DNA of 64,000 nt from a virus (IMGVR_UViG_3300009664_000002:7333-71332); one strand, 5' to 3'; shown: positions 31,145 through 31,222, counted from the stretch's first letter. The notes: generated from the letters alone by a model not told the origin. A program made the numbers and translations.

Positions 31145-31222
31145 CGGCAGATAACCAGCATGTCTGATACACATGACTAAGGTAATTGGTTGAAAATATG
31201 GGTTCAAATCCCATTCTGCCGA
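31145..31222 (+). tRNA. tRNA-Ile(GAT), non-canonical (D-arm relocated)
   Basis: cggcaga/tctgccg, catgt-ctgatac-acatg, T-arm; 7-nt 5' linker and 22-nt post-anticodon segment containing aattggtt. Confidence 0.78.

Follow-up and report, generated by a model that had tools for sequence, protein, structure and literature searches.

The element at positions 31145-31222 of this phage DNA raises the question of whether a short gene that tRNA finders pass over, and that has no D hairpin, can nevertheless be a working tRNA-Ile(GAU). It lies in a stretch of 64,000 nucleotides (here called the window; 23.6% GC) that covers bases 7333-71332 of a 71-kb IMG/VR virus record, which has a CheckV completeness of about 24% and is therefore a fragment of a huge phage. 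ARAGORN reports 22 tRNAs and one tmRNA in the window, none of them for Ile, Tyr or Ala. Only two codons are commoner than ATT (66 per 1000) in the long open reading frames. A scan of the window for minihelices made of an acceptor stem and a T arm yielded three elements, 31145-31222, Tyr(GUA) at 26024-26117 and an unusual Ala(UGC) gene, which together represent exactly the three amino acids absent from the ARAGORN list. The original prediction called 31145-31222 the only GAU Ile tRNA of the window, and no other element there has that anticodon. Given that the record is only about a quarter complete, an ordinary Ile gene may exist elsewhere in the phage. The reading favored here, at a probability of roughly 0.78, is that 31145-31222 is a functional elongator tRNA-Ile(GAU) from a phage-specific family with a re-threaded core, and that it would read AUU and AUC.

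The layout first described for this locus, with a 7-nt linker (taaccag) before the anticodon arm and a 22-nt segment containing ggt-aattggttg after it, can be read directly in the sequence. The gene and its neighbors consist of the following parts:

31145-31222 (+): whole gene, 78 nt, as read from the sequence
31145-31151 (+): acceptor stem 5′ strand CGGCAGA, with seven of seven Watson-Crick pairs to 31215-31221
31152-31158 (+): linker TAACCAG, 7 nt
31152-31153 (+): connector TA (U8 A9), invariant in 31/31 family members and 11/11 subtype members
31154-31158 (+): strand X, made of ACC and AG, whose partners are GGT at 31181-83 and CT at 31177-78, respectively
31159-31175 (+): anticodon arm CATGT/CTGATAC/ACATG, a 5-bp stem and 7-nt loop, with stem pairs that covary in the family
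31166-31168 (+): anticodon GAT, in a loop with U33 and A37, both invariant in the family
31176-31197 (+): 22-nt segment ACTAAGGTAATTGGTTGAAAAT behind the anticodon arm
31176-31183 (+): return strand (bulged A, CT, AA, and GGT as X′), which pairs with 31154-58 and is the analogue of the D-stem 5′ strand 10-13
31184-31197 (+): relocated D-loop AATTGG and tail TTGAAAAT, with analogues of A14, A15, G18 and G19; the tail ends in the U48 analogue
31185 and 31197 (+): A15 and U48 analogues, respectively, read by family homology
31198-31214 (+): T arm ATGGG/TTCAAAT/CCCAT, with a canonical T-loop (T54, T55, C56, A58)
31215-31222 (+): acceptor 3′ strand TCTGCCG and discriminator A73, the latter at 31222
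31057-31138 (+): upstream neighbor tRNA-Cys(GCA), 6 nt off
31229-31313 (+): downstream neighbor tRNA-Ser(UGA), 6 nt off

Strand X stands in for the D-stem 3′ strand (22-25/26) and continues straight into the anticodon stem. The gene has the 7-bp acceptor stem with discriminator, the 5-bp T stem with 7-nt T-loop, and the 5-bp anticodon stem with a 7-nt loop, U33 and a purine at 37 that are expected of a cloverleaf. What it lacks is a D hairpin between position 9 and the anticodon arm, the gap from acceptor stem to anticodon stem being 7 nt only. CCA is not encoded (the next bases are CAT), and the gene is spaced like the other members of the tRNA array. At this position ARAGORN makes no call in its default/bacterial, -mt and -mtx modes and gives a nonsense fold only at -ps80, and the Rfam tRNA model RF00005 has no match at E<=10. 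A longer 5′ end was considered and rejected, as the tRNA-Cys is only 6 nt away. That tRNA-Cys(GCA) has U73 and a class II shape, with 3 bp in the D stem and 13 nt in the variable arm; Cys tRNAs in the same slot of related phages range from 72 to 90 nt. Elsewhere, two ARAGORN calls of 'tRNA-Ile(gat)' with lengths of 92-97 nt (L260:4421-4512 and L261:6002-6098) are really 78-nt rewired genes in which upstream bases were taken as a false acceptor and D arm, and over-long database tRNA calls of this kind may hide further rewired members.

Relatives of the gene were sought by way of the intein-bearing ribonucleotide reductase of the window (27091-30417, plus strand), which as bait led to 80 loci of related huge phages, the longest contig measuring 675 kb. 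The order of tRNAs in these loci is conserved, with Lys/Tyr upstream and the series Cys-(Asn)-Ile(gat)-Ser(tga)-Phe-Gly-Ile(tat)-Asn-Thr-Arg downstream of the reductase. In the window, the Ile(GAU) slot is taken by 31145-31222, giving Cys-[Ile]-Ser, an order shared with relatives. A search of the reductase-linked loci by nhmmer with the Ile, Tyr and Ala elements of the window gave nothing useful, and the relatives came instead from a structure-based scan. Minihelices in these loci that ARAGORN does not call have the same layout, with anticodons GAU, UAU, UCU and ACG, and each such rewired gene fills a slot in which other relatives have an ordinary tRNA of the same anticodon.

A covariance model built from five sequences (R1) scored rewired genes at 62-90 bits and cloverleaf tRNAs at 41 bits or less in the reductase loci and 38 whole records. 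Pattern scans of IMG/VR, including a loose pattern (GTAATTGGN{3,9}GGGTTC) for which the matches listed were mostly chance and were filtered afterwards, provided about 20 further members on unrelated viral contigs among the matches listed. The rewired family is defined here by models R1 and R2 and alignments A2 and A4. A2 is a MAFFT alignment of 31 distinct genes for Ile, Arg and Val, together with one CAU gene (GAU x7, UAU x12, CAU x1, UAC x1, UCU x6 and ACG x4), and R2 is a covariance model made from 30 genes of the same layout, leaving out the window gene and all members of its subtype. A homolog search with a custom covariance model had been suggested as a check on the locus. With R2, the window gene scores 59.2 bits (E 4e-14), as compared to 30.7 bits for the best cloverleaf tRNA of the window, 61.6-71.2 bits for ten other members of the subtype and about 87 bits for copies in two cultured phages.

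The same loci hold other unusual elements. Class II-shaped tRNAs (82-85 nt) that combine a long variable arm with a GAU anticodon are found at L005:17524-17608, L006:15437-15518, L019:16253-16334, L022:20035-20116, L157:2508-2591(-) and L246:9808-9891, often beside a normal or rewired tRNA-Ile. Another unannotated family (L009:13802-13874, L035:20219-20293, L042:16756-16831 and L057:18523-18595) has a perfect acceptor stem, TGACYTT/ARRGTCA, and a T arm, has neither a recognizable D arm nor a standard anticodon arm, and includes GTGTCATGACAC; it is flanked by the Ser and Phe tRNAs in three loci and precedes Asn in the fourth, L057.

The first half of the family plan, as seen in A2, comprises a 7-bp acceptor stem, U8 A9, a U, the three nucleotides of X, one nucleotide and the anticodon arm. 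The second half consists of an A-rich spacer (mostly 4-5 nt, longer in a few members), X′, a U, AAUUGG, 4-8 nt, the T arm and the acceptor 3′ strand. Pairing according to this plan is found in 97.6% of cells, against 64% in shuffles (0 of 500 shuffles were as high), and falls to 42-48% when the 3′ partner is slid by one to three columns. Double changes occur at 17 of 19 pairs, and all four helices covary. The acceptor stem covaries at all seven pairs, and 98% of T-arm cells are paired. The X/X′ helix (11-13/43-45) is paired in 97.8%, with changes on both sides at each of its three pairs; the enclosing-helix pair 12-44 occurs as all four Watson-Crick types (CG 11, GC 8, UA 7, AU 5).

The D-loop-like stretch, by comparison, covaries with nothing and is invariant, as is expected for nucleotides that make tertiary contacts. 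TAAT-TGG is invariant or almost so across the family, as are, without variation in A2, U8, A9, A14, G18, G19, the T-loop, U33 and A37. The analogue of the Levitt pair 15-48 is AU in 28 members and GC in three, with no exception; the three G/C cases form one lineage and therefore probably represent a single event. After GG, all 10 Arg members of A2 have A and all 21 others have T/U. An Arg(UCU) gene of the 78-nt subtype (L271) has U after GG, so that A20 is found in 10 of 11 Arg members overall. A20 is known as the main D-loop identity element for ArgRS in E. coli. The assignment of 31145-31222 as a tRNA-Ile(GAT) with a relocated D-arm, as originally proposed, is thus supported by family-wide covariation, by the retained nucleotides of the tertiary contacts and by synteny. 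On this comparative evidence, the gene is real and conserved, one of a family of non-cloverleaf tRNAs specific to phages.

The original prediction had also cited a second instance of the layout, in a Tyr tRNA, as an argument against random decay. That element is real, and the argument gains much in strength from the dozens of phages that share the layout. The Tyr element has the following form:

26024-26117 (+): Tyr(GUA) non-cloverleaf tRNA, with a 6-bp enclosing helix ACGGCA/TGTCGT and ATTGG behind the anticodon arm

Its homologue at L173:3109-3203 (+) has ACATCA/TGATGT, which is compensatory to ACGGCA/TGTCGT in the window. The Tyr version differs from the 78-nt Ile subtype in its longer, 6-bp enclosing helix and in a long insert. 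The Tyr element could also form another helix, CCAC/GTGG in the window and CTCC/GGAG in L173, which would make a pseudoknot with the first.

A decaying tRNA pseudogene or an assembly chimera would account for the rejection of 31145-31222 by gene finders, and a related copy (L259/L249) is indeed without its 3′ acceptor strand. This explanation is scarcely credible for a gene that has a perfect acceptor stem, T arm and anticodon arm, that reaches 59 bits with an independent family model, and whose helices all show compensatory changes. Contigs from three separate metatranscriptome runs, which carry no RNA ends or strand and come from a type of library that can hold DNA, span the gene without differences (31037-32254, 30726-31462 and 30833-32254). 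A private assembly error is therefore excluded; the layout also occurs in finished genomes of cultured phages, and the assembly chimera that had been named as a possible refutation of the prediction falls away. One metatranscriptome contig begins 20 nt upstream of the array's first tRNA, and the contigs are a weak hint that the gene is transcribed. At window position 32254, inside tRNA-Arg(ACG), the contigs of three metatranscriptome runs diverge with the same continuation (GTTTTGCGTATATATG...), a sign of strain variation downstream of the array. Words sampled from the tRNA region are complete in 14 DNA runs (2016-2023) from activated sludge, wastewater and soil, and 75-86% of them are present in six metatranscriptome runs. 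DNA run X11 gave pieces of 18-22 nt only, though all sampled words were present.

Within the family, the window gene belongs to a rarer subtype. Two further IMG/VR scans found ten other contigs with genes of exactly 78 nt and the same peculiarities, namely a full 5-bp anticodon stem, a bulged A behind that stem followed by two extra helix pairs, an invariant CC...GGU and a conserved tail UUGAAAAU. Together with the window gene, these (GAU x8, UAU x1, UCU x1) make up the 11-member alignment A3, in which A73 is invariant and the acceptor stem is 100% paired, covarying at 7/7 pairs. Against cultured phage records, blastn found no match for the window gene and one irrelevant partial match for a subtype relative; the 78-nt subtype is therefore known from metagenomes only.

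Two pairings had been offered for the linker, one with ct/ggt, extending the anticodon helix, and one of 7 bp with ttggttg. Both are present in the window copy (ACC/GGT plus AG/CT, and TAACCAG/TTGGTTG), and their nearest-neighbor energies are -21.9 and -22.0 kcal/mol, respectively. With the two folds equal in energy, thermodynamics does not decide between them, and it is the comparative data that favor the ct/ggt fold, which agrees with the family. In A3, the two pairs made by 'ct' are CG in six members and GC in three (pair 14-33) and AU in five and GU in one (pair 13-34), and the flanking pair 10-39 is formed in 3/11 members only. The CC/GG core never varies in the subtype, so that the assignment of G37G38 rests on homology with the wider family and not on subtype covariation.

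The 7-bp pairing would leave gene and function as they are and change the fold of the 78-nt subtype: U8-G14 of the linker would pair with TTGGTTG (31186-92), the anticodon arm would be enclosed in a large D-like loop, and contact with the T-loop would be made by the GG of AAGGTAA rather than that of AATTGG. Both the minimum-energy and the centroid folds of RNAfold use this helix. Four of its seven pairs can form in the subtype (U8-G48, C11-G45 and C12-G44 are invariant, and A9-U47 occurs in 10/11), and the tail TTGAAAAT is conserved there. However, no covariation supports the helix among the 11 subtype members; its three variable pairs (10-46, 13-43 and 14-42) are mismatched in five to eight of them, and the equivalent helix in the 31-member family is 51.7% paired, the level of shuffles. 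The invariance of AATTGG while the linker varies is the pattern of a tertiary contact and not of a helix strand, and the 7-bp fold would sequester G18/G19 and U8. This second pairing is accordingly unlikely, and of the two offered, the one with ct/ggt is retained.

The ct/ggt fold has three ordinary arms (acceptor, T and anticodon) and no D hairpin between 9 and 26. Following U8-A9, ACC-AG joins the anticodon stem directly and would find its partner, CT..GGT, 3′ of the anticodon arm. The short X/X′ helix is predicted to stack on the anticodon helix and lengthen it, like the D-stem of a cloverleaf, and the single-stranded D-loop AATTGG would then lead into the T arm, with contacts between G18/G19 and the T-loop, between A14 and U8, and between A15 and the U that immediately precedes the T stem. 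Expressed in cloverleaf positions, this would amount to a shift of block 10-21 from before 22-48 to behind it, and the chain would run in the order 1-9, 22-26 analogue, 27-43, short spacer, 10-13 analogue, 14-21, Y48, T arm. The new joins (9 to 22, 45 to 10, and 21 to 48/49) would link residues that are already close in the L-shape. In tRNA structures, the 9-23-12 and 45-10-25 triples make the joined residues neighbors. Since X runs 5′-to-3′ into the anticodon stem and X′ leads into A14...G18G19, the D-stem-like helix can still stack. By analogy with these structures, we infer that the L-shaped core would be built by a re-threaded chain.

An Rnl1-type RNA ligase gene is located at 23309-24409 (plus strand), just upstream of the Lys/Tyr tRNAs. 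The idea that such a nearby ligase restores a cloverleaf after the transcript is cut was considered and rejected: two cuts and two ordered ligations would be needed, and the unprocessed fold already keeps every core contact. The re-threaded transcript itself would presumably be excised from the array by RNase P, trimmed at its 3′ end, provided with CCA, charged by the host IleRS and used by the ribosome. In the 71-kb record, no CCA-adding enzyme (PF01743) was found, and no IleRS (PF00133) was found there or in four relatives, two of them complete (G000, G002 and G010 were among those searched); charging would therefore fall to the host enzyme.

The need for such a tRNA is seen in a complete relative (G002; 327 kb, 26% GC), in which ARAGORN finds 55 tRNAs for 19 amino acids. 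It calls neither Ile(GAU) nor Ile(UAU) in this genome, the only Ile tRNAs of which are two rewired genes; ATT and ATA account for 63 and 31 of every 1000 codons there. In some phages, such as L240 and L209, an ordinary tRNA-Ile(GAU) stands beside the rewired gene, which is thus not the sole source in every case. In L157 and L246, the GAU neighbor of the rewired gene is the odd form with the long variable arm.

Where a cloverleaf Ile(GAU) stands beside the rewired one, a conserved tRNA-like RNA with a role outside translation might be considered, for example a regulator or a decoy or sponge for a tRNA-cleaving defense nuclease of the host. Phages counter anticodon nucleases, and this adds to the appeal of the idea. 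It is nonetheless quite improbable as an account of 31145-31222. The anticodons of rewired genes match those of the ordinary tRNA of the same slot in relatives, isotype identity features are kept (A20 in nearly all Arg members, A73 in Ile), and U33 and A37 do not vary. A decoy, moreover, has no need of a perfect and covarying acceptor stem, and in the otherwise full tRNA set of G002 the rewired genes alone represent Ile.

If the gene is a translational tRNA-Ile(GAU), as favored here, it may be asked whether the altered core is itself of advantage. It is possible, if rather doubtful, that the re-threaded core is an adaptive phage design, one that host synthetases, the CCA enzyme, EF-Tu and the ribosome would still recognize and that would let Ile, Arg and Tyr tRNAs evade tRNA-targeting defenses or the phage's own tRNA-degrading enzymes. 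The evaded enzymes would be ones that recognize their target by its D-arm or core shape, and Ile, Arg and Tyr would be the tRNAs for which phage demand is high.

Several other features of the window bear on its tRNA complement. The unannotated tRNA-Ala(UGC) gene (18975-19051, plus strand) has G3.U70 and lacks a regular D stem (CATGTACCAAGGCTGGCGA), and its T-loop, TTCGTTT, has U58; it is missed by ARAGORN and is not of the rewired type. Between tRNA-Gln and tRNA-Pro, a tRNA-like element (16856-16978, plus strand) has a 17-bp outer inverted repeat (AAAATTATAATCTAAAT / ATTTGGATTATAATTTT) around a D-loop-like AGTTGGTTAAA and a T-arm-like GGTGGTTCGAATCCATT, and is without a clear anticodon arm. 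The phage tmRNA (19743-20097, plus strand) encodes a tag of 28 residues. The tRNA called Met(CAU) at 31962-32036 (plus strand) occupies a slot that is Ile(UAU) in most relatives and may be a lysidine-type tRNA-Ile2 reading AUA, a codon used at 38 per 1000 in the window.

The layout is not confined to the huge phages. When a typical member of the family was compared by blastn with 50,697 phage records, two groups of cultured phages proved to have copies that are not annotated. Kehishuvirus 'tikkala', a crAss-like phage of Bacteroides (host Bacteroides cellulosilyticus), has its copy at OQ198717.1 95577-95653, where it fills a tRNA-sized gap between an annotated tRNA-Trp and tRNA-Met. This copy (L234:1501-1577) and those on about eight crAss-like IMG/VR contigs (e.g., L173, L247 and L251) are rewired Ile(GAU) genes, and 'tikkala' also has an annotated cloverleaf tRNA-Ile. 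The crAss-like genes have two U.U mismatches in the acceptor stem (TGAGTTG/CTTCTCA), where the relative L232 has a perfect TGAGAAG. About 77 records of Streptomyces phages have an unannotated copy, which in phage Mildred21 is directly behind the tRNA nucleotidyltransferase gene of the phage. The Mildred21 gene spans NC_042008.1 73703-73779, of which blastn matched 73709-73779. A specific pattern run over 185,579 prokaryote species, with one genome each, gave six hits, all on contigs of metagenome bins; five are within dense mixed tRNA arrays, and two of those contigs have phage protein matches. By the scanned pattern, the layout is nearly absent from prokaryote genomes.

A full-text literature search found no description of this layout, and a 2020 review of non-canonical tRNAs neither describes it nor mentions phages (PMC7609411). 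What is new here is the Ile member, the 78-nt subtype, the analysis of 15-48 and A20, the argument from a complete genome and the choice of pairing. The layout is common in phages of very different hosts, namely huge sludge phages, crAss-like gut phages and Streptomyces phages. ARAGORN systematically undercounts phage tRNAs, the complete 327-kb phage that seems to be without an Ile tRNA being one example. Synthetases, RNase P, the CCA enzyme, modification enzymes and the ribosome would all have to accept a topological isomer of tRNA, and the layout may offer a natural tRNA scaffold of distinct structure. One may also ask whether phages escape tRNA-directed immunity by this means.

Some known RNAs resemble the rewired form in part. 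Domains of tmRNA and of the bacterial Y RNA YrlA combine an acceptor/T-arm minihelix with a D-loop mimic and have no normal D stem. They are without an anticodon arm, whereas the phage RNA has one, with isotype-matched anticodons, and 31145-31222 has no match to the tmRNA or Y RNA families of Rfam.

A second comparison is with the D-armless mitochondrial tRNAs, such as mammalian mt-tRNA-Ser(AGY) and nematode mt-tRNAs, which are flexible and have lost the contact between D-loop and T-loop (PMC7609411). These functional non-cloverleaves share with the phage form the absence of a D hairpin and a short connector between acceptor and anticodon arms. In contrast to them, the phage form keeps the bacterial T-loop, G18G19, U8-A14, 15-48 and a D-stem-like helix made of non-adjacent strands; it belongs to a phage record and to phages of bacteria, and ARAGORN -mt does not find it.

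The closest comparison is with canonical tRNA-Ile(GAU) itself (RF00005; in related phages, L008:15762-15836 and L012:13246-13320). The two have in common a 7-bp acceptor stem with A73, a 5-bp T stem with a TTCRAnY loop, a 5-bp anticodon stem with a CUGAUAM loop, U8, A14, G18G19, R15-Y48, their position in the array and the lack of an encoded CCA. The rewired gene differs in that it has no D hairpin: the strand after U8-A9 pairs 3′ of the anticodon arm, and the D-loop comes directly before the T arm, at the usual place of the variable loop. It is this difference that leaves it below the reporting level of RF00005 and uncalled by ARAGORN. The cloverleaf is held to be near-universal outside mitochondria, and the rewired family would be a second conserved way to build the tRNA core, one in which the tertiary contacts are unchanged and the threading of the chain is different.
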